From assembly GCA_964610995.1 (NCBI GenBank), contig CAZSWF010000002.1, positions 6,338 to 70,337 of the forward strand: 64,000 nucleotides of DNA, written 5' to 3'. The notes below the pieces were generated by a model. It ran no database searches. It worked only from the letters and a program-made list of their open reading frames with translations, and was not told the DNA's origin. A program made the translations under genes and the position numbers. The stretch is from an uncultured Candidatus Saccharibacteria bacterium (lineage in GTDB: Bacteria > Patescibacteriota > Minisyncoccia > Phycocordibacterales > UBA9973). Numbering within the stretch: the first letter of the stretch is position 1; each line of letters begins with the position of its first letter. Of this stretch, positions 51,893 through 61,424 are shown in pieces.

Positions 51893-52186
51893 CTACACTT
51901 TTGCTATTACTTCTTGTGCAAGCAATGCACGCTTTGCACGAGGACCGCCGCGGTTGTACTCTCCGACGCTTCCATCAGAACGAACCACGCGGTGACACGG
52001 CACAGTTGGATCGTAGTTACCTTTCATCACTGTCCCCACAGCACGAGCAGCGTTAGCATTCCCAGCTTTCTTTGCAACTTCTGCATAGGTCATCGTCTTG
52101 CCTTTTGGGATCTGACGCACAACATCACGCACCTTATCTGCAAATGATTTCACGTGCGCATTATTTGACGATCGGGTGTGGGACAT
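51893..52186 (-). CDS. MGMT-family protein (O6-alkylguanine-DNA alkyltransferase DNA-binding domain)
   Basis: TYAEVAKKAGNANAARAVGTVMKGN...PCHRVV contains the PCHRV active-site motif. Confidence 0.8.
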   Translation of the reverse strand: MSHTRSSNNAHVKSFADKVRDVVRQIPKGKTMTYAEVAKKAGNANAARAVGTVMKGNYDPTVPCHRVVRSDGSVGEYNRGGPRAKRALLAQEVIAKV

Positions 52187-52460
52187 TGAGCACTTCTTTG
52201 AAAAATGTCACGATCACAGTATTTTCACCTTCGGTGATGAAGTCGGTGTTGAAGGTACAGTTATAAGCGACAGTTTGGCGATACCCAAATGCAACTTTGG
52301 TAAAACTCAGGTCATCGATCGAAAGGTTGCAGCCTTCTTGGAGTGTGGACTGACTTTCGTACACTTTGTTGTAGATCAGCTGACGAGCATCTGCAGGCTC
52401 AAACCATGGACACCATGCAACAATAATAAGTCCTACAACTATAAGTGCGAAAAATGCTTT
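52161..52460 (-). CDS. hypothetical small membrane-anchored protein
   Basis: Probable start MKAFFALIVVGLIIV. About 100 aa. Confidence 0.35.
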   Translation of the reverse strand, partial: KAFFALIVVGLIIVAWCPWFEPADARQLIYNKVYESQSTLQEGCNLSIDDLSFTKVAFGYRQTVAYNCTFNTDFITEGENTVIVTFFKEVLNVPHPIVK

Positions 52461-52641
52461 CATATAAGTACTAGTATAGCGCACTAGTAGAAATGGCACC
52501 AAGTTTCGTGTGGACTCCAGTATGGTTTTTGTAAACCAGATAGCTAAGGAATTGGAGTATCTGGCTTGGGTACTAAAAGGAGATTATGAGAAAAGTGTCT
52601 AAATTACTGTCGGTACTGTCTTTAGTGTCTAGATATTAAAA

Positions 52642-52665
52642 AGCCCCTTCAAGAATGAGGGGGCT
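52642..52665 (-). terminator. rho-independent terminator
   Basis: AGCCCCTT-caagaatg-AGGGGGCT. On the minus strand it is followed by TTTTTAATAT, downstream of the 52689-54539 gene. Confidence 0.65.
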
Positions 52666-52688
52666 GTATAAAGAACTTCTTCTAATTA

Positions 52689-54539
52689 CTATTTACCAAA
52701 GTTGGTAATTCGACGTCCTAAGTTGTTTACTGGATTTTCAAGTATGGCAGGCTTTGCCCATACACCAGAAATCAATCCTGTATTTGCGGTCTTGGACTTC
52801 GTGATTCTTTGTTTTAGGAAAAATGGTTCAACCTCTACGTTGTAAAAACTAGCGGCCGCACTATCCATTTCGGAAAGCTTCCTATAAGCAAGAAGAACAT
52901 GTTTAGTGCTCCCGATGGAAATAGCTGACCGAAGCATTGCTGCTAATATCGCAAGAGATTTTATATTGCCCTGATCTAACCATTCACATAAAGATTTGTA
53001 TTCCCCATAGTGAAGCAGTTTTGCGGCCTTTCTCTCTTCTGCGATTCTTAATTTTTCAACCTCAGTTGTCGCTGTTTTAAAAGTTCCAAGTAGGTTAAGT
53101 TTTTTCTGTAAGAGACTAAGCCGATTCAAATCCTTTTCCTCTGTAGGTACAAATTCTGAATAGAACTCGAGTGATCTTACTGTCAATTCACATTCCTTTG
53201 TCTGTAGGGCTACTAAATCCTTTTGAATCTTTTCAACTGCCCGAAGAATGGTGTCGTGATACTCTAGAAAAAGTATCCTTTCTAGCACAACCTTAACAGC
53301 GTATTCATTTTTAGTTTTCATCGCACGACAAAGGAGACTGGAAAGGACGTTAGCAGATGTTGTTTTTGCAACACTGTGTTTAATCATTGCTTCTATCTCA
53401 GTATCGGAAGAAAAAGATCCTTGCTTGAATAAGCCATAAAGTACATCACGGTCGAAGGGTTTAATCGTATATGCCTCTTTACAGGACTTGATAAGGGCAG
53501 GATGCCGATAATCTATCGTAAGCGCCTTTCTACAATCCTCAAGCCTTTTTGCCAACCAGATCGGTCTGTCTTTAAACAGCATAATTTCAAGATTTGGAGG
53601 AACTTCAAAACCACTAATCGCGGCCATTCTATTGAATAGGACTTTTGAATTAACCTTTTGTACTAACCACCACAAAATGAGAGATTCTGTCTGAGAATTA
53701 TTTTTCCCTTGGCAATACAAGCACATTGGTACAAAAGTTGTTAAAGAGCCTCTCTCTACTAACCTCTGTACATCATTGGCTATAATTTTTTTATACCGCT
53801 TCTCGAATGTCTCAGCTGTATCAACAGCCCAGGCAACATCTTCCCGAACAAACGGTATTTGAAATATATCCTTTTGACCCTCATTTTCTAAAGAAGAAAA
53901 ACAGGTTGAAAATATAATTTCAGCTATTTCTCTTTCTCCTAGGTACAAGTAGTACCAGTAAAATGAGAGTAAAAGGTTTCTGCACCCGTATTCAAGGAGT
54001 TTTGATGTAAGGGCAACAAGACAATCGGTTCTCTTTTCATCTTTGGTTCTTAAACAAAAACGATACATTGCATCCCATGCTACCCACTGCCAGCTACTTT
54101 TGCGAGCTTTAACCGCAATTACTTTTTCAACAAATTGCAGTTGCTGGTCATTAATGGGCCACATTCTTTTATGAGCAAGAAGGAATACAATTGTTGATTC
54201 CACACCTTTGTCTAATACATATAGAGTGATCATATCTTCATAGGTGGAAAAGAAATAGGGTTCATTTTCAATTTTATTGAAGAAATCACTTTCTTTATAA
54301 GCATGAATTTCTTTAGCCCTTTTTGTATTTATCTTGCATCCTGTTAAATCTTCAATGAGGGATAAGCGCTCAGCCCCCATTAAATCACGGTGATAACACA
54401 AAACTATAAATGCTTCCGTGTTTTTACCTTCTTCGATAAGCGATTTTGCTTTGGAAATAATTCCTTGTTCATCCGATGTACCGATTTCTAAATCGGACAT
54501 CCTGTTGGATTGATTGGCGAAACGTGTCTTTTTCTCCAT
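52689..54539 (-). CDS. large hypothetical protein (616 aa), AT-rich island gene
   Basis: Long uninterrupted ORF of low GC, predicted helical, with no recognisable catalytic motif. It is the last gene of a three-gene minus-strand operon. Confidence 0.5.
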   Translation of the reverse strand: MEKKTRFANQSNRMSDLEIGTSDEQGIISKAKSLIEEGKNTEAFIVLCYHRDLMGAERLSLIEDLTGCKINTKRAKEIHAYKESDFFNKIENEPYFFSTYEDMITLYVLDKGVESTIVFLLAHKRMWPINDQQLQFVEKVIAVKARKSSWQWVAWDAMYRFCLRTKDEKRTDCLVALTSKLLEYGCRNLLLSFYWYYLYLGEREIAEIIFSTCFSSLENEGQKDIFQIPFVREDVAWAVDTAETFEKRYKKIIANDVQRLVERGSLTTFVPMCLYCQGKNNSQTESLILWWLVQKVNSKVLFNRMAAISGFEVPPNLEIMLFKDRPIWLAKRLEDCRKALTIDYRHPALIKSCKEAYTIKPFDRDVLYGLFKQGSFSSDTEIEAMIKHSVAKTTSANVLSSLLCRAMKTKNEYAVKVVLERILFLEYHDTILRAVEKIQKDLVALQTKECELTVRSLEFYSEFVPTEEKDLNRLSLLQKKLNLLGTFKTATTEVEKLRIAEERKAAKLLHYGEYKSLCEWLDQGNIKSLAILAAMLRSAISIGSTKHVLLAYRKLSEMDSAAASFYNVEVEPFFLKQRITKSKTANTGLISGVWAKPAILENPVNNLGRRITNFGK

Positions 54540-54617
54540 GTTTTTATTTTTTTGTAAGTGAACAATTTTATATCGACTTTATACTACATTGCATATTTAA
54601 TATGTCAATGTCATCAG

Positions 54618-55088
54618 TTACTGAACTTTGCTTCTAAACACTTCCAGGAGAAAAGGTATTTTATCTTTTAGAATGTTTATATTATTACCTATGTCGTTTA
54701 CCTTATCACTCATACCTGAAAGAATTGTAGTAGTTTCTTTTTGTTTTACTTCCAAGACTTCAATTTTATCCCCATGAGAATAGACTAAATAGCCCATCCA
54801 AACTAAAGCTGCGATTGCCGCCACAATAAGGCTAACAAAAATATTACTTAACAGATTTTCAAAACCAAATGCATCTCTTAGTCTCAAACGAAAAGGTTTC
54901 TTTGTCTTTCTACTTTTTTGAGGCTTTTTTTCCTCCTCAAAATTTGAAGAATCAGTTGTATCAACAGTATTAAATTTCTTTTCAGTTGTTTCTAAACCTG
55001 AAGATTTTAATAAAAAACGCTTATATGCATTTTTCTCATAAGGAGTTTTTCCTACATGTTCAGATCTAATGTATCTACTATTTTTCAT
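54618..55088 (-). CDS. hypothetical single-pass membrane protein
   Basis: 156 aa with a basic N-terminus (KPQKSRKTKKPFRLRLR), one TM segment (IFVSLIVAAIAALVWMGYLVY) and a coiled C-terminus. Confidence 0.45.
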   Translation of the reverse strand: MKNSRYIRSEHVGKTPYEKNAYKRFLLKSSGLETTEKKFNTVDTTDSSNFEEEKKPQKSRKTKKPFRLRLRDAFGFENLLSNIFVSLIVAAIAALVWMGYLVYSHGDKIEVLEVKQKETTTILSGMSDKVNDIGNNINILKDKIPFLLEVFRSKVQ

Positions 55089-55776
55089 TTTCGTTAAAAA
55101 TCCAAGGATAATACTTATTATCTAAGTATGAAATAGCATCTTTTATAAAAGCTTCTGTATCGCAGTCTCTTAGATCGTAGAAACTTGGATCATAGTAATA
55201 TTGGAAATCCAAATTTGCTTCAAACTTACCATCTTTTATTTCAGTAAAATTATAAATATAATTTTTGAAATCGTTTACATTTTTTCTATAAAGAGATTCT
55301 TTACTCTCTTCTTTTGATGAGAATGTTAAGTTTATGTTCTGAGCTTTATTTATTTTTGAGTTTGTAATTAATGGTATAACTGCTTTGAGTTTTTCTATAT
55401 TTGAAACTTCATGTCCAAAAATAACACCTATTCTGCTAATATTAACTAGCTCAAATTTTCTAAAAATGTGCTCTTTTAAATAAGGCAATACCTTATCGTT
55501 TAGGAATTTTATTTTTGTATCAAAATTACCTTCGACTTTCAATTTTATAATTAAATCATCTGTATTGATTCTAATATATTCATCTGTTTCAGTATTATAT
55601 AAGATTCTTTCTCGAAGATTGGTATCTCGAACCTCTGGGAACATTTCTGCTCCAAATGGCGACTCTTCGTCGTACAAAATATGGTCTATAATCCTTCCAG
55701 CCTCGTCTCTCAAACGAAAAGATCTCGAATGTCGTATACCTAGAATAACTGAAGTTATGTCCTTTTTTAGATTCAT
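55078..55776 (-). CDS. hypothetical protein (232 aa)
   Basis: AT-rich ORF whose stop overlaps the next gene's start by about 10 bp, with no motif I can assign. Confidence 0.45.
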   Translation of the reverse strand: MNLKKDITSVILGIRHSRSFRLRDEAGRIIDHILYDEESPFGAEMFPEVRDTNLRERILYNTETDEYIRINTDDLIIKLKVEGNFDTKIKFLNDKVLPYLKEHIFRKFELVNISRIGVIFGHEVSNIEKLKAVIPLITNSKINKAQNINLTFSSKEESKESLYRKNVNDFKNYIYNFTEIKDGKFEANLDFQYYYDPSFYDLRDCDTEAFIKDAISYLDNKYYPWIFNENEK

Positions 55777-56046
55777 AGTTAGAGCTTAATATATCATTAG
55801 TATCAAAAATGTCCATGGGGAAGCTTAAGTTGCAATGGTTCCAATTCCCCGAAGGCATTACGTTCGATGGAAAGGATTATGGAACCGTACAAACAGCAGG
55901 TGTTTTCAAGACAAAAGAGGCATTTCTGCCCCTTCAGTCTTCTACGGTGGACTTGGGAGTTCAATTTTGGAACAGATTTGCTGTGGAGTGTCAATATCTT
56001 GTCCATATTATGCGTGAATACAATGCTGACTTGAAAAGATAAAAAA

Positions 56047-56520
56047 CTACCTCCACTGCGTATCACTATTCTTTATGTCTCTCAAGGTCTTCCAGCTCAT
56101 CTCTTCAACACCGCCCGCACGGTCCACGAAAAAAATATAGAGGTTCAATTTATCCATCACATCAAATGGCATTTTTCTCAAGACCATCTTCTTAAATGAA
56201 ATTGGAAAAGCTACACCGTATTTATAGCCGTATTTGTACCCACGCTTGCCGTTGCGGTGCATTCTTGTAATGATTTGTCCTACGGCTGAATTGAAACAGC
56301 TACTCATACTACCAGCGGGACTTTTTACGATAATTGATGGGTCGCCCTTTGCCTCAATCAACCAATAGCGAGAAAAGTTATCGTTTCTGACTTTGATGTC
56401 TACACCCTGTTCCCAGAGTTCGGCATTTCGCAGTGAAGTACTCCATCCTTTTCTCTTCAAATACGCAACCACGTTTTTTTGCACAAAGCTCTCTGTAATT
56501 ATTTCTCGTGTAGCCTTCAT
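56047..56520 (-). CDS. putative PD-(D/E)xK nuclease-fold protein
   Basis: GVDIKV...YWLIEAKG has the spacing of a D...ExK restriction-endonuclease-like core. It is 17 bp downstream of the RT gene on the same strand. Confidence 0.4.
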   Translation of the reverse strand: MKATREIITESFVQKNVVAYLKRKGWSTSLRNAELWEQGVDIKVRNDNFSRYWLIEAKGDPSIIVKSPAGSMSSCFNSAVGQIITRMHRNGKRGYKYGYKYGVAFPISFKKMVLRKMPFDVMDKLNLYIFFVDRAGGVEEMSWKTLRDIKNSDTQWR

Positions 56521-56536
56521 ACTCTCTTTTATAGCA

Positions 56537-57655
56537 TTAGGACATACTCTTCACCAGCTCTTTGACTTCGCTTGTGATTTTCTTGGCATTGCCATGACTT
56601 AATAATCCAAGATAGGACTGCACGGTCTCCTCTTTTGCACCCATCTCCGCGATACGCTTGTACATGCGACGCTTGGTCACGGTCCGCACCGCACGATGGT
56701 CTGGAAAGTGGACCCATCCAAGGAAATCAACGCCCGAGGCGAGCGTCTTTATGAAAACTTTATCTGGATGTAATAAAAGTTTTAACTTTTCTTTAAGAAA
56801 AATTGATATTTTCGGGAGAATACCCTCAAGTACCGCTTTGTCATCGGACAGGAATACGAAATCATCGGCATAGCGGATGTAGTGCTTCGCTTTGAGCGTA
56901 TGCTTCACGAACTGGTCAAACTCGTTCATATAGATATTGACCAAGAGTTGTGAGGTAAGGTTGCCAAGCGGCAGTCCTCTCCCTTTTTGAGTTGAATGAA
57001 AACTGCCAACAATTTCAGCCAAGAGTTCTACGATGTCCTTGTCTGCGATAGAACTTTTAATGATGTTCAACAGGATGTCGTGGTCCACCGATGCAAAGAA
57101 CTTCCGTATGTCGCATTTCAAAACCCAGACAGTGCGTGTGTCATTCTTTGAGACCTTGTAGGACAGAGTACGAAACCGCTGCATTGCCTTGTGGGTGCCT
57201 TTGTTTTGTCTGCAAGAAAATGAGTCAGCAATAAATGTGTGGTCAAAAAATGGATAGAGCTGACGATACAGTGCGTGGTGCAACAATCGGTCCGCAACGG
57301 ACGCCTTGTGAATGTTTCGCGGTTTCGGGTCAGAAATGTTGAACGCTTCGTACGATGAGTGTCGGTATGTTTTCGCTACAAGCGTGCGGTGCAGAGCGAT
57401 GACGTTGCCCATCAGATTTCTTTCAAATAGCAAAACATCTTTTCTTGATTTTTTACCCGACACAAACTCTTGCCACGCAAGGAGGAGGTTTTCGAGAGAA
57501 ATGATATGCTCGTAGCTATGAATAAACCGAGTCCGAGCAATACAATGACCATCACCCCCCCCCGACAATTTTGCCCGTGCTTCAAAAGCTGAAAACTGTC
57601 TATATTCATTGGTATGGATATTATCACGAACTCCCCAAGACACACCGCCACTCAC
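56537..57655 (-). CDS. diversity-generating retroelement reverse transcriptase
   Basis: RT motifs include IRYADDFVFL (YADD box). LPLGNLTSQLLVNIYMNEFD is the DGR-type [ILV]GxxxSQ motif, replacing the QGxxxSP of group II introns. A 9-nt G-run lies in the 5' region, and the start is uncertain. Confidence 0.85.
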   Translation of the reverse strand: MSGGVSWGVRDNIHTNEYRQFSAFEARAKLSGGGDGHCIARTRFIHSYEHIISLENLLLAWQEFVSGKKSRKDVLLFERNLMGNVIALHRTLVAKTYRHSSYEAFNISDPKPRNIHKASVADRLLHHALYRQLYPFFDHTFIADSFSCRQNKGTHKAMQRFRTLSYKVSKNDTRTVWVLKCDIRKFFASVDHDILLNIIKSSIADKDIVELLAEIVGSFHSTQKGRGLPLGNLTSQLLVNIYMNEFDQFVKHTLKAKHYIRYADDFVFLSDDKAVLEGILPKISIFLKEKLKLLLHPDKVFIKTLASGVDFLGWVHFPDHRAVRTVTKRRMYKRIAEMGAKEETVQSYLGLLSHGNAKKITSEVKELVKSMS

Positions 57656-57918
57656 TCGGAGTACGCATTGATACGCTGTTCATAGAAATAATGGAGTCAA
57701 TCGCCGTGGCAAGTTTTCTCGCTCGTATTGAAAAACAACCCTATGTACGGATTGCTATACGAAAAATTGATACGCTCAAAGTACTCATGATGGTGCTTTG
57801 GGAAACGAAGTCGCTCGATGACAAGAAGTACATCGCACTGTCGGTACAAATCGAAGAAATCGGGAAGATGCTCGGCGGCTGGAACGGGCAACTCACAAAA
57901 CAAAACTCTCCCAACTAA
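57571..57918 (+). CDS. DGR accessory variability determinant (Avd, four-helix-bundle protein)
   Basis: LPKTHRHSLGVRIDTLFIEIMESIAVASF...IALSVQIEEIGKMLGGW parallels Bordetella phage Avd (PRKHGVAREMF...AEVGRILGSWIA). It starts at TTG 57571 or a later ATG, on the strand opposite to the RT and TR. Confidence 0.65.
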   Translation: MPVLQKLKTVYIHWYGYYHELPKTHRHSLGVRIDTLFIEIMESIAVASFLARIEKQPYVRIAIRKIDTLKVLMMVLWETKSLDDKKYIALSVQIEEIGKMLGGWNGQLTKQNSPN

Positions 57919-57945
57919 TAAAAGTTGAGAGAGAAATGAAGAGAG

Positions 57946-58069
57946 TTGCCGAGAGAGCAGCAGGGTTGTTGCCATTGAAGTCATTGCTCAACCAGTTGTT
58001 GCTCCAGTTCCACTGACCATCGTTCCAATACAGGTAACGGACATAGAGGTTGTCGTCAGAGTTGCGGTT
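57946..58069 (-). repeat. DGR template repeat (TR)
   Basis: 124-bp repeat. Versus the copy at 58434-58557, every one of the 19 mismatches falls where this copy has A on the minus strand, so this is the adenine-bearing template. The first 20 bp are identical in both copies (IMH-like GC-rich end). Confidence 0.85.
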
Positions 58070-58428
58070 ATGTATGGCGTGCCATCCATTCCACCATCCT
58101 TTGAATACTCTCGGGATTGTATCGTATCTGTGATAGTAATCACCCAGCACGTCATACCAAGTATCTTCAATTTTTTGAAGTTTCTACATACACCACCCTA
58201 TCTGAAGCCGTGACCGCAGATATTCTCGATGTATGGATACTAGCTTCGGCAGTCGGAAGCCGTAACCGCCGTCATATTCGCCAGAAGCCGTTCTCATGGT
58301 ATCACAAAAAAATAACCCCTATATGAAAAATATAGGGGTGAAGATTTGTAAAACCTTCAAAACTTTTTTATCGCGAACAAAGGACAAAGGGTCACAGCTC
58401 ATAGAGCACAGTGTTCGAGGGTATAGTA

Positions 58429-59019
58429 CTAACTTGCCGAGAGAGCAGCAGGGTAGTGGCCATAGAAGGCATAGCTCAACCAGCGGTTGCTCCAGAGCCA
58501 CTGACCACCGTCCCAATACAGGCAACGGACACAGAGGCGGCCGTCAGAGTCGCGGTAGATGGTCCCCCAGAAGAAAATATATTTTCCTTTCCATTCTTCA
58601 GGAATGGCTTTGGGGTTCGCCAATAGGTAGTCCAATACATTTGCGTTCAGTACTTTCTTGCCTTTTAATTCTTCACGCAGTTTGTTGCCTTCGATGCTAC
58701 CGTTCTTCTGTTTCTTGGAGAGATAGAGTTCAACTTTTGAAGCGTCAAACTTAATGTTGCCGTTCTTTTGGTGTTCCTCTACTTTCCAACAACTTGGAAT
58801 GAATGGTGCTGCATCGCAGTCAATAACGTGTTCAATGCCTTTTATTTCGTGGGTGCCGCGTAGCACACCGAGGACCAATTTCATCAGATTTTCATCTTTT
58901 GAAAAATCGTCCATGTTTTTTGGTTCCCAGCCTACTTTTGCGGCTGAAAGGGTAACTTCCCCCATGAGGGTACAGCTAAACTCATTTGATTTTGCCATTG
59001 TTTTAGGTTTGTGACACAT
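58429..59019 (-). CDS. DGR target protein with C-terminal variable (C-type-lectin-like) region
   Basis: 196-aa ORF whose last roughly 40 codons are the VR, with no obvious signal peptide. The start may be the internal MAKSNEF. Confidence 0.75.
   Translation of the reverse strand: MCHKPKTMAKSNEFSCTLMGEVTLSAAKVGWEPKNMDDFSKDENLMKLVLGVLRGTHEIKGIEHVIDCDAAPFIPSCWKVEEHQKNGNIKFDASKVELYLSKKQKNGSIEGNKLREELKGKKVLNANVLDYLLANPKAIPEEWKGKYIFFWGTIYRDSDGRLCVRCLYWDGGQWLWSNRWLSYAFYGHYPAALSAS
58434..58557 (-). repeat. DGR variable repeat (VR) at the 3' end of the target gene
   Basis: This is the counterpart of the TR. TR Asn/Tyr/Asp codons (AAC, TAC, GAC) correspond to R/C/L/Y/H/G/A codons here: TR-encoded NLYVRYLYWNDGQWNWSNNWLSNDFNGNNPAALSA becomes RLCVRCLYWDGGQWLWSNRWLSYAFYGHYPAALSA. 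It ends 2 nt before the stop codon. Confidence 0.85.
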
Positions 59020-59199
59020 CCGCTTTTTGCGGACTCATCGGTGAAAAAATGTATTAAAGAACTGATAGTATTATAGCACCATTTCGTTATATAGTCAATA
59101 AACCCTTATTCCCCTATGCCGAGAGCAAAAAGCCGCGTGTAGCACCGCAGCTCTCCGCTGATAACCGTATTCTTTTGTTGAGGTTGAGATAGTAAAATC

Positions 59200-60546
59200 C
59201 TAGAAATTAGTAAGTAGTGATAAAATCCTTTTCTGTACCTCACTACTTGGAATGGTGGACTCATGGTAACAGTCGTCCTTTTCCGAGAACACAACAAAGT
59301 CCGTACCATCGAATGTATTGATTGGTATCCAAAAAAACCTATCAACAGGGTCGTGACGGTCAATGGCGACACTCACACCAAGAATATAGTCATAATTTTT
59401 CATGTACCCTTTGATGGTGAAGCACCAGTTTGCAACGCCGTCCACTGTGAAGCGTGCCCCAATCGCCATCGGCAGTTTCCTGACTGCCATGTCAGCGTCG
59501 TCAATTTCCATGCCGTTACTCATAAGAAGAGCAGAGATTTCCGTCTGAAGACCACGTCTTGCTTTTCGCACAGCGTATGCACCCTTTTGCCATTTGGTGG
59601 GCATGAGCCAATACAAGCGGTCTTGGGCAGCGTTGAACATCTCCGAAGAAACGATACCTTCAAATGCGTTCGGTTGGATGACCCACTCACTTCGCGGATT
59701 GCGACGGTGCTTCTGTTTCAATCGACCCCATGTCTTGTTGTAGATACGGGTACCAGTGTATATCTCGTTCGTGAGGACATGGAGTACACCAATAGACTTC
59801 CATGTTTTGCCCTGTGCAGTGAGAACGCCCCGTGCGTTCAGTATCTCTGCGATTGTCTGGGGTGACTCCCATTTCTCCACTAACAGCTCGTACATTTCTT
59901 TGACTACCTCACTCGTCCCGTCATCGGCAGGGGCGAAGGTGACACGCTCATTTGAGATTGATTTCCACTCTCCCTTTTTGAGCTTTCGCAACGGCTTCTT
60001 GTCTACGTCGAGGAGCATACGTGTCATGCCAAACGGAGGTTGACCTCCTGCTGAAAACCCTTGCTCGGATACTTTGACACAGCCATGGAACACCTTGCCA
60101 CTCAACTGACGAGAGTATTCAGCAGCCATATAGCGACCAATGGATGTCTGAAGTGTAGAAATGAGCTGTTCATCTTCTTTGGGAAATCCCTGCGAGACGT
60201 ACACGACTTTCTTCCCATTCTGCTTACAAGTGTATTCGTAGTGAGCAGCCTCGTTCTGGTCCTGAAATCGTCCCCAACGGGATACATCGTAGACAAAGAC
60301 ATAATCGAAGGCAGGAGCAAAAGGGTTCTTAATCCAATCATCAAACAGACGTTGAAAAGCAGGTCGGTCCGCCGATAACCCACTTTCTCCCTCATCAGCT
60401 TCCTCATGGATGATTTCGATGTTATGCGTCTTTGCAAATGCTTGCGTATGTCCCTGCTGAATAGCAACCGAGTTCTCTTGCTTGTCCTTTGCGGAGTGAC
60501 GATAGTACGCCACGCCTGTCTTGCGTATCGGTTCTGATATAGACAT
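59200..60546 (-). mobile_element. large serine recombinase (integrase)
   Basis: The N-terminal resolvase catalytic domain (AYYRHSAKDKQ with the catalytic Ser, FDYVFVYDVSRWGR), a recombinase domain and a Cys/His-containing C-terminal region are typical of large serine integrases. Confidence 0.8.
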
Positions 60547-60548
60547 GG

Positions 60549-61424
60549 CTAGACAATTTTAATCGTCTTTCTAATAAGAGCTTGAAGTTGAACGAGAGAT
60601 GCTTTTTCGTTCTTCGTGAAAGATGTGCCATTCTCTTTCTTTTTCGTAATCTTCTTGATGAGGTCGCCGCACATGAGGGCAAATCCCGTCTGGCGTGTCC
60701 GTAGCTCAAGCTCATTTGCAGTCATGGGTATTTTTATCAAGAACTCATGGAGCTCGTCCTCATTGATTGTCGCCTGCATAAATACCTTACCAATCTTTCG
60801 TATGTCGAGTGACTTGGTGATGACCTTTTTCTCAATTTTTGCAAATATAATCGAAATAATATCGTCGACCTCGAGTTTTTTGATTTTCTGAAGTTTCTTA
60901 AACAGGTTGAGCATTGCCATACGAACACTCCTTGGTACGTCGTAACGCTCCATCATTGTCAAGTTCGATATTCTTTGTTTTCGCATCTGCATGGCAAGCT
61001 GGACCGATGACCTACTCATACCGAGATAATCTGCAAGCTCGTGATTACTCTTGAACCCATAGGAGTACTTGATACGCTCCAGAGCTTCAGATTTTTCTAA
61101 CGGGTTCCATGCACGACGATTATTCTGCATTTCATATCGTCGTGTCTCAAACTCACCGTCCGTCATCTTGGGGTAGATACGACACGGCACATGTTTCATT
61201 CCTAACTTCTGGGCACAAATAAATCGACGATGACCGTCGATTATGATGTAACGTTTTTCCGCTATCTGACTTACTTTGATTGGCTCTTCAATGCCATAGT
61301 TTTTAATCGACAGTTTGAGCTTGTTCTTCTCGGCTTCGACTCCGAAGTCTTGTCTCGGTTGATTTTGGTCTCGCTGAACTTGTCCAATAGGTAACTCTGC
61401 AAATATGAACTTTGGTTTTAGCAT
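60549..61424 (-). CDS. ParB/Srx-like nuclease domain protein
   Basis: IGQVQRDQNQPRQDF...LSIKNYGIEEPIKV...IIIDGHRRFICAQKLG is the ParB N-terminal domain signature. It lies 3 bp upstream of the serine recombinase. Confidence 0.7.
   Translation of the reverse strand: MLKPKFIFAELPIGQVQRDQNQPRQDFGVEAEKNKLKLSIKNYGIEEPIKVSQIAEKRYIIIDGHRRFICAQKLGMKHVPCRIYPKMTDGEFETRRYEMQNNRRAWNPLEKSEALERIKYSYGFKSNHELADYLGMSRSSVQLAMQMRKQRISNLTMMERYDVPRSVRMAMLNLFKKLQKIKKLEVDDIISIIFAKIEKKVITKSLDIRKIGKVFMQATINEDELHEFLIKIPMTANELELRTRQTGFALMCGDLIKKITKKKENGTSFTKNEKASLVQLQALIRKTIKIV

Follow-up and report, generated by a model that had tools for sequence, protein, structure and literature searches.

We examined a diversity-generating retroelement (DGR) in a 64,000-nucleotide stretch of DNA, hereafter the window, from an uncultured Candidatus Saccharibacteria bacterium (contig CAZSWF010000002.1 of assembly GCA_964610995.1). 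The start regions of its avd and reverse transcriptase (RT) genes face one another across a run of nine C residues on the plus strand, which is G9 on the strand of the RT. We find that a hypermutable repeat at this junction is a conserved feature of the B3-type DGRs of the candidate phyla radiation (CPR), and we favor, with some confidence, the interpretation that it is a slipped-strand phase-variation switch on the DGR machinery. Conservation and local enrichment of the repeat, turnover of its type, length polymorphism in identical backgrounds, and its relations to the two reading frames were each observed directly in the related loci. The original prediction, made on the window alone, had called the tract slippage-prone and a possible phase-variation switch, an idea that now draws support from the conserved repeat, from its replacement by non-triplet units, and from length differences between otherwise identical contigs.

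The RT in the window belongs to a very large clade, with homologs that come nearly all from Patescibacteria. From GTDB genomes and metagenomes we gathered 160 related loci; those with enough upstream DNA (134, plus the window itself) make up the 135 analyzed. The avd gene lies immediately upstream of the RT gene and divergent from it in 135/135, with no same-strand and no avd-less case, and a repeat is present at the junction in 125 of the 135 (~93%), as poly-G of at least 7 in 113 and as some other repeat in 12. The poly-G tracts, read on the RT strand, comprise 7 of G7, 13 of G8, 26 of G9, 34 of G10, 26 of G11, 2 of G12, 4 of G13, and 1 of G14. Nine of the ten remaining loci fall under the threshold, mostly with G6 or shorter, and the tenth has an N gap. 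The repeat persists even in loci where Avd is only 30–45% identical to the Avd of the window.

The 12 replacement repeats are (CT)n, (GT)n, or (GA)n in six loci, (CTGG)n or (TTGG)n in five, and (GATTGCT)n in one, with units of 2, 4, or 7 nt and never a multiple of three. One sub-clade alternates between the units CTGG, TTGG, and GATTGCT. Read directly, the GATTGCT heptamer places a TGA in every frame of the RT strand and leaves all frames of the avd strand open. As is characteristic of contingency loci, the mutable tract is over-represented relative to the sequence around it: runs of G or C of at least 7 number 116 in the 135 junctions, versus 9 in the remaining 707 kb of these loci (0.013 per kb). 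In the window, the C9 run is the sole G/C run of at least 7 in 64 kb, and 0.16 runs of at least 9 would be expected from base composition.

The junction repeat also leaves traces in assemblies and gene calls. Many contigs end in it or a few bases from it (L131 1–38, L156 1–60, L109 1–30, L062 1–25, and the ends of L030, L037, L048, L060, and L138), and two have N gaps there (L009, L072). Because assemblies break at the repeat, the linkage of avd to RT would be hidden in such cases and surveys of DGRs biased. Gene calls vary as well, with Avd proteins of 79, 95, 106, 114, or 124 aa and RTs of 312 to 405 aa; for annotation, this means that the tract often makes avd and RT calls truncated, over-extended, or missing.

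Length differences among otherwise identical genomes, another property of contingency loci, were found in related lineages. Exact-protein look-ups of RT homologs yielded sets of contigs, drawn from different samples, in which the RT genes match at every nucleotide. In one such lineage (P0009, 8 contigs) the tract is G10 in one contig, G11 in six, and G12 in one; in a second (P0016, 9 contigs) it is G8 in one, G9 in five, G10 in one, and G11 in two; and in a third (P0113, 5 contigs) it is G8 in one, G10 in one, and G11 in three. Two more sets with identical flanks read G11/10/10 and G10/8. Control homopolymers in these contigs (A7, T7, and T8) were invariant. The P0009 contigs (L081–L088) could be compared across as much as 2.4 kb on the upstream side and 3.4 kb on the downstream side (~5.8 kb), and their other differences are confined to the variable repeat (VR) and two bases in L083, making the VR and the tract almost the sole mutable sites in otherwise identical DNA. 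Three or more VR alleles are present among them (VR at 1480–1605 of L081), and L082 and L084 share one VR allele with different tracts (G12 vs G11). The VR differences between these samples may reflect ongoing mutagenic retrohoming in this related lineage. Differences of two or three nucleotides, as seen in these sets, exceed the one-base errors expected at G10–G12, which argues that they are not consensus errors.

Repeats of other types and more distant pairs differ in length as well. Three related, not identical, (CTGG)n loci (L043, L106, and L158) carry 9, 10, and 11 copies, differing by whole units; being just 79–88% identical, they were not counted as one lineage. Between the window and its nearest relative, with a 92% identical RT, the tract is G9 vs G11. 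In the P0050 lineage (L188–L193), which has G10 in 6/6 contigs, no intact avd was called, only fragments of 44–55 aa; here the DGR may be decaying and its tract frozen. The P0085 lineage (L198–L202) has GGAGGAAAG, a Shine–Dalgarno (SD)-like sequence invariant in 5 contigs, ~20–30 nt upstream of the RT ATG instead of poly-G, and may represent loss of the switch. A second poly-G tract was seen 28 nt past the RT stop (L089 2554–2563 and the same site in L090–L096), with a PG_binding_1 gene and, after that, an Lcl_C gene downstream of it. The tract reads G7, G9, or G10 among contigs with identical RT genes, with an invariant A7 run there, and is a further candidate contingency locus adjoining a DGR.

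How the tract relates to the RT frame in the window depends on where the RT starts. Most homologous RTs are 330–340 aa long, with the N-terminus M-[ASG]-R-I-Q-F-x-H-x-Y-x-x-I-I-S-L-E-N-L-L, which corresponds to ~57541 in the window, and they start ~13 nt downstream of the tract. In the window, an ATT (57541–57539) occupies the place of that ATG, and no ATG, GTG, or TTG lies between the tract and the conserved RT FIHSYEHIISLENLL. The sole in-frame start near the conserved N-terminus is a TTG at 57568–57566, 5 nt before G9, which would give M-S-G-G-G-D-G-H-C-I-A-R-T-R-F.... With the nearby in-frame start upstream of G9, tract length would set the RT frame in the window: G9 keeps the RT begun at this TTG in frame, and a one-base change would break the frame. 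The tract had been placed exactly to the base, as had its reading as SGGG on the RT strand, where the longest RT open reading frame (ORF) reads ...AKLSGGGDGH... across it; longer RT gene calls in relatives show the same ...SGGG... read-through.

An 85-nt overlap of avd with RT had also been described, and it exists for the longest ORF. It requires, however, that the RT start at the first GTG (57655), whereas homologous N-termini begin near 57541, and the part of the extension that precedes the tract is not shared as protein by the homologs of ~330–340 aa. Judged by these comparisons, both the overlap and the long N-terminal extension of the RT are products of longest-ORF calling.

The RT TTG and the avd TTG (57571) are separated by only two bases, so the leader of each gene lies inside the other. 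The avd TTG is indeed 7 nt past the tract, as first reported, but its role as the start is less certain than was assumed, because the aligned codon is a non-initiating Leu in about half of relatives. The ATG at 57545 starts a 15-codon ORF that passes through C9 out of the avd frame. With C10, the same ATG would yield a 124-aa Avd beginning MTITPPPTILPVLQK..., an N-terminus resembling the ATG-led poly-Pro N-termini of 54 of 120 homolog clusters. The closest relatives vary around this arrangement: L182 (RT 92% identical) has G11, no in-frame RT start, and ACG replacing the upstream avd ATG; L178 (75% identical) has G9 with TTG-SGGG in frame and CTG as its first avd codon; and L181 (81% identical) has an ATG directly before the first avd codon.

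We then counted frames on the avd side in 90 loci. The codon aligned to the window's TTG is TTG in 42, TTA in 27, CTA in 8, CTG in 5, CTC in 5, and CTT in 1, so in about half of the loci it is a Leu codon that does not initiate and is not the avd start. From the repeat to this codon the avd frame is stop-free in 90/90 loci, with a start codon inside that interval in only 4, and an ATG upstream of the repeat is open into it in 90/90. This upstream ATG is in frame with avd in 25 of 44 lineages whose first codon is non-initiating versus 8 of 40 with TTG (Fisher p=7e-4, identical-flank lineages collapsed). Frame state is thus tied to the first avd codon, and selection seems to act on the DNA-level frame where avd relies on it. 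In the protein database, among the best 120 Avd homolog clusters, 54 are ATG-led and read the tract as poly-Pro (e.g., MLPPPTILPVLQK, MKQPPPPRLLPLLQK, and MNKLNSSHTINSTPPPTILPVLQK), 33 begin at the Leu/Pro position, and others show HTHTHT or SHQPS from alternative repeats. In the P0009 lineage, the G12 variant (L082) is called as a 124-aa Avd, and its G11 and G10 siblings as 114 aa.

On the RT side, an in-frame ATG follows the repeat in 83 of the 125 repeat-bearing loci, exactly 13 nt downstream in 34 and 12–14 nt downstream in 39. No RT start codon follows the repeat in 31; of these, 15 have an upstream start in frame, typically 4–8 nt before the repeat, and 16 have none, so that from sequence their RT appears to be OFF. 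A −10-like hexamer, TAnnnT, abuts the tract in 25 of the 39 loci with an ATG 12–14 nt downstream, compared to 4 of 40 without a downstream ATG (p=5e-7; background frequency 1.5%). In the window, G9 is followed by TGATGG, not TAnnnT. Flank lengths also covary with the repeat: the longer the tract, the fewer the bases between it and avd codon 1 tend to be (Spearman −0.32, p=0.003), and the sum of the two peaks at 16–18 bp. We infer that a 6-nt hexamer plus 7 nt to the ATG reflects the geometry of a near-leaderless RT mRNA, which would put the tract in the promoter spacer.

A promoter at the junction would also fit the RNA structure predicted on the other side of avd. A terminator-like hairpin (stem 57933–57906, tail to 57896, minus strand) directly follows the template repeat (TR), and an equivalent hairpin (CTCCCTC...GGGGGAG, with varying stems, then TTTTGTTTT) was found in 95 of 135 related loci versus 22 of 404 random windows. 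Its presence suggests that the TR is transcribed into an RNA of its own, without antisense read-through into avd; the RT would then need its own promoter at the junction, in keeping with the −10-like element. The hairpin could end the TR transcript, or could be a DGR RNA element that replaces the Bordetella 'spacer'. Pairing of the G tract with a CU-rich stretch after the TR, as an RNA element, was considered and set aside, as the unrelated replacement units argue against sequence-specific pairing.

In the model that we propose, slipped-strand mispairing during replication would change the length of the repeat at high frequency, and with the avd and RT start regions only ~20–40 bp apart, each change would alter expression of the DGR machinery. 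The repeat would thereby act as a stochastic, reversible on/off switch, or a rheostat, of mutagenic retrohoming. The read-out is expected to depend on lineage and to involve the RT frame, the avd frame, the spacing of the promoter, or several of these. About two thirds of loci have the RT ATG ~13 nt past the tract with TAnnnT abutting, and there the tract would sit in the promoter spacer. In about one quarter, including the window, no RT start lies past the tract and the RT would be read through it as poly-Gly. In about half, no usable avd start lies past the tract and avd would be read through it as poly-Pro from the upstream ATG. For the window, the predicted state is RT ON with G9 and avd translated from TTG 57571, and C10 would give the N-terminally extended Avd from ATG 57545. 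That expression truly switches, and that switching is adaptive, we infer from these patterns in the sequences.

Several observations weigh against this model. The upstream avd ATG is in frame in 34 of 90 loci against 37.7 expected, with no overall excess over chance, and 28 of 90 loci have a repeat that may fall outside the avd and RT coding regions alike, so shifting of frames is not the universal read-out. The promoter read-out has its own difficulties, since the proposed −35 (TGGCAA or TGGTAA) matches the consensus poorly and a simple sigma-70 consensus scan of 57300–58500 found no promoter. Three tract-bearing lineages are monomorphic (G10 in 6 contigs, G9 in 3, and G9 in 3), and all tract lengths are taken from assembly consensus, where a one-base error is possible at G10–G12. 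For the window in particular, it is conceivable that translation of the RT begins at ATT 57541 and that of avd at TTG 57571, which would make both frames independent of the tract. No relative of the window's own lineage with identical flanks was recovered, a variable-gap flank scan giving 0 metagenome contigs and 0 viral contigs; likewise, a metagenome search for close relatives gave none above 70% RT identity to the window.

We considered whether the tract might instead be a fixed cis-element, serving as a promoter spacer, as an SD-like purine run for the RT, or as an insulator of overlapping divergent promoters, with its instability a tolerated by-product. The regular geometry of the junction speaks for this: the distance from tract end to RT ATG is strongly conserved, with the loci that depart from 13 nt mostly at 1 modulo 3, the −10-like hexamer adjoins the tract, and flank plus tract add up to a preferred length. 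The lineage with GGAGGAAAG at the tract position and the chance-level fraction of ON frames point the same way. A sequence-specific element would not, however, swap to (CTGG)n, (TTGG)n, (GATTGCT)n, (CT)n, (GT)n, or (GA)n, always non-triplet, nor is it clear on this account why a highly mutable G/C run is retained at this very junction in genomes where such runs are otherwise avoided, or why frame state correlates with avd having its own start codon. We therefore think a fixed element unlikely, while granting it a real share of the probability.

A second alternative is programmed transcriptional slippage or ribosomal frameshifting, by which in-frame Avd or RT would be produced at a fixed low level whatever the length of the tract in the DNA, so that DNA polymorphism would matter little. 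Homopolymers of at least 9 are known slippage sites for RNA polymerase, and many consensus genomes are apparently OFF (avd in 22 of 90, RT in 10 of 90). Moreover, the upstream ATG is out of frame in the majority allele of each of the three polymorphic sets, and P0009 VRs still differ between samples. Against this stand the tetra- and heptanucleotide repeats at the same position, which are not known RNA-polymerase slippage sites, and the association of frame state with the first avd codon, which implies that selection sees the frame at the level of DNA. On balance, we judge programmed slippage doubtful, and more so than a fixed element.

Lastly, it is very improbable that the tract, or the variation in its length, arose from faulty sequencing or assembly and that the RT extension is a mis-assembled frame: poly-G is error-prone on Illumina and several contigs break or have N gaps at the repeat, but more than 110 independent assemblies from many projects have the tract in the interior of a contig, with unique sequence to either side, its lengths differ by more than a one-base consensus error and, in the (CTGG)n loci, by whole units, the A7, T7, and T8 runs of the same contigs do not vary, and the extension is accounted for by ORF calling. 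The assembly error that had been offered as a source of the extension is thus not supported, and an assembly error as the source of the tract is excluded, given that more than 90% of independent assemblies have the tract.

A complete DGR of CPR type occupies ~56.5–59.0 kb of the window (Table 1). The TR and VR differ at 17 positions, and 17/17 fall on TR adenines in the minus-strand reading, with the VR inside the 3′ end of a protein-coding target gene. RTs of the DGR clade are defined by [LIV]GxxxSQ plus YxDD, and the RT in the window, which matches RVT_1 with E=1.2e-24, has LGNLTSQ and YADD. The target ORF (58429–59019) had no Pfam match.

The plus-strand ORF at 57571–57918 carries the motifs GKMLGGW and PK..R.SLGVRID that had first marked it as Avd-like, and family and fold matches bear this out. 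It matches the NCBIfam family DivGenRetAVD (NF033474) with E=1.6e-17 and 63.7 bits, under the 80-bit cut-off, and Pfam bAvd (PF22296) with 39.4 bits, under the 40-bit cut-off; both are near misses of the curated family cut-offs. A sequence-profile search of the PDB with the Avd alignment did not retrieve bAvd, and a fold search did. The AlphaFold model (predicted local distance difference test score, pLDDT, 93.9) has four helices over residues 2–109 of the 115-aa form and superposes on Bordetella phage Avd (4DWL) with a template modeling (TM) score of 0.80–0.88 and a root-mean-square deviation (rmsd) of 1.5–1.8 Å, and similarly on the Avd chains of the DGR ribonucleoprotein structures 8UB7, 8UBB, and 8UBE. 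Because the 115-aa protein contains the entire four-helix bundle, the TTG-initiated Avd is structurally sufficient. Avd proteins characteristically form a pentamer that binds the RT and the DGR RNA, and in the loci analyzed here avd is always linked to the gene of a DGR RT. ORF and repeat coordinates confirm that avd is antisense to the RT, TR, VR, and target. This is the B3 architecture, written TR-(avd)-RT with parentheses for the reverse strand, which was reported for 90% of CPR DGRs (Wu et al. 2018, NAR; PMC5758913). The window's avd is placed in just this way, on the strand opposite to the TR and RT that flank it, and its reverse orientation is not new but standard for CPR DGRs.

Table 1. 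Features of the DGR in the window, in order of position.
Feature	Coordinates	Strand	Remarks
RT, longest ORF	56537..57655	-	RVT_1 match, E=1.2e-24; LGNLTSQ and YADD in translation
RT, likeliest reading frame	56537..57568	-	343 aa; from TTG 57568-57566 through G9 (Ser-Gly-Gly-Gly)
Short ATG-led ORF	57545..57592	+	Crosses the C tract; out of frame with avd at C9; encodes MTITPPRQFCPCFKS*
Simple-sequence repeat, C9 (plus) / G9 (minus)	57555..57563		avd/RT head-to-head junction
Open-frame RT extension	57569..57655	-	Antisense to avd 5′ end; probably untranslated; in longest-ORF call only
avd	57571..57918	+	115 aa if TTG 57571 is the start
Terminator-like hairpin and T-run	57896..57933	-	Immediately 3′ of TR; overlaps avd stop and last codons on the other strand
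TR	57946..58068	-	33 adenines on minus strand, 17 substituted in VR
Terminator-like hairpin	58315..58339	-	Downstream of target gene and VR
VR	58434..58556	-	123-nt repeat, 86% identity to TR, inside target ORF
Target gene	58429..59019	-	196 aa; VR at 3′ end, 5 nt before stop codon

The hairpin downstream of the VR may be the GC-rich hairpin that often follows the site initiating mutagenic homing (IMH) at the VR end in DGRs, as its position fits. An Rfam scan of 56000–59500 returned only a sub-threshold match to RT-6 (58315–58384, plus strand; 20.2 bits vs a gathering threshold of 46.7, E=0.36), which overlaps this hairpin on the strand opposite the target gene. On one side the DGR is flanked by a low-GC stretch (within 52000–56000; 32% at 54–56 kb vs a mean of 45%), and on the other by a large serine recombinase (59200–60546, with Resolvase and Recombinase domains) beside a 291-aa ORF (60549–61424). 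These flanks suggest that the DGR cassette lies in or beside a mobile element.

DGRs are densest in CPR bacteria, and rewriting a working ligand-binding protein without control should carry a cost; to our knowledge, little has been reported on what switches DGR mutagenesis on and off. We put it at an even chance that, in hundreds of CPR (Patescibacteria) species, the DGR engine is gated by a contingency locus that toggles Avd and/or RT, hedging bets between diversifying and non-diversifying cells. If so, control of targeted hypermutation in CPR bacteria would be heritable yet reversible. Evolvability would then be organized in two tiers, and there would be a concrete mechanism by which the phases of diversification and selection proposed for DGR targets could alternate. 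Control of a DGR by a contingency locus is probably a new regulatory variant: the literature that we searched, which did not extend to the principal paper on CPR DGRs (Paul et al. 2017, Nat Microbiol), gave no account linking DGRs with repeat-mediated phase variation.

The CPR B3 cassette, as described by Wu et al. 2018 (PMC5758913), has the same order of target and VR, TR, reverse-strand avd, and RT as the window, and the searched text of that paper mentions no repeat at the avd/RT junction, no start-codon problems, and no length polymorphism. The DGR of Bordetella phage BPP-1 (mtd-avd-TR-brt) is alike in its RT with LGxxxSQ-type and YADD motifs, in the four-helix bundle of Avd, and in the adenine-specific differences between TR and VR. 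In BPP-1, however, avd, TR, and brt all point the same way, with a non-coding spacer RNA downstream of TR, whereas in the window avd is inverted, a terminator-like hairpin follows the TR, and the avd and RT starts stand head to head across a repeat.

Among phase-variable systems, repeats in promoter spacers act as switches at porA (poly-G) and opc (poly-C) of Neisseria meningitidis and at hifA/hifB of Haemophilus influenzae, where (TA)n lies in overlapping divergent promoters. The junction described here would be similar in having a short hypermutable repeat between or beside promoter elements, and the hif tract is shared by two divergent genes, setting the output of both. Those systems control surface antigens of host-adapted pathogens, whereas the genes here encode the hypermutation enzymes of CPR bacteria, and a promoter role for the repeat is suggested by the −10-like motif and spacing only. 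The intragenic poly-G/C contingency genes of Campylobacter jejuni and Neisseria are also comparable, with tracts of similar length (7–14 nt) at the 5′ end of the frame, ON and OFF frames, and clonal length differences; C. jejuni NCTC11168 has 29 loci with poly-G/C of at least 7 (PMC4965091). The DGR junction, for which switching is a prediction, differs from these genes in that one tract can serve two head-to-head frames, read as poly-Pro in avd and as poly-Gly in RT.

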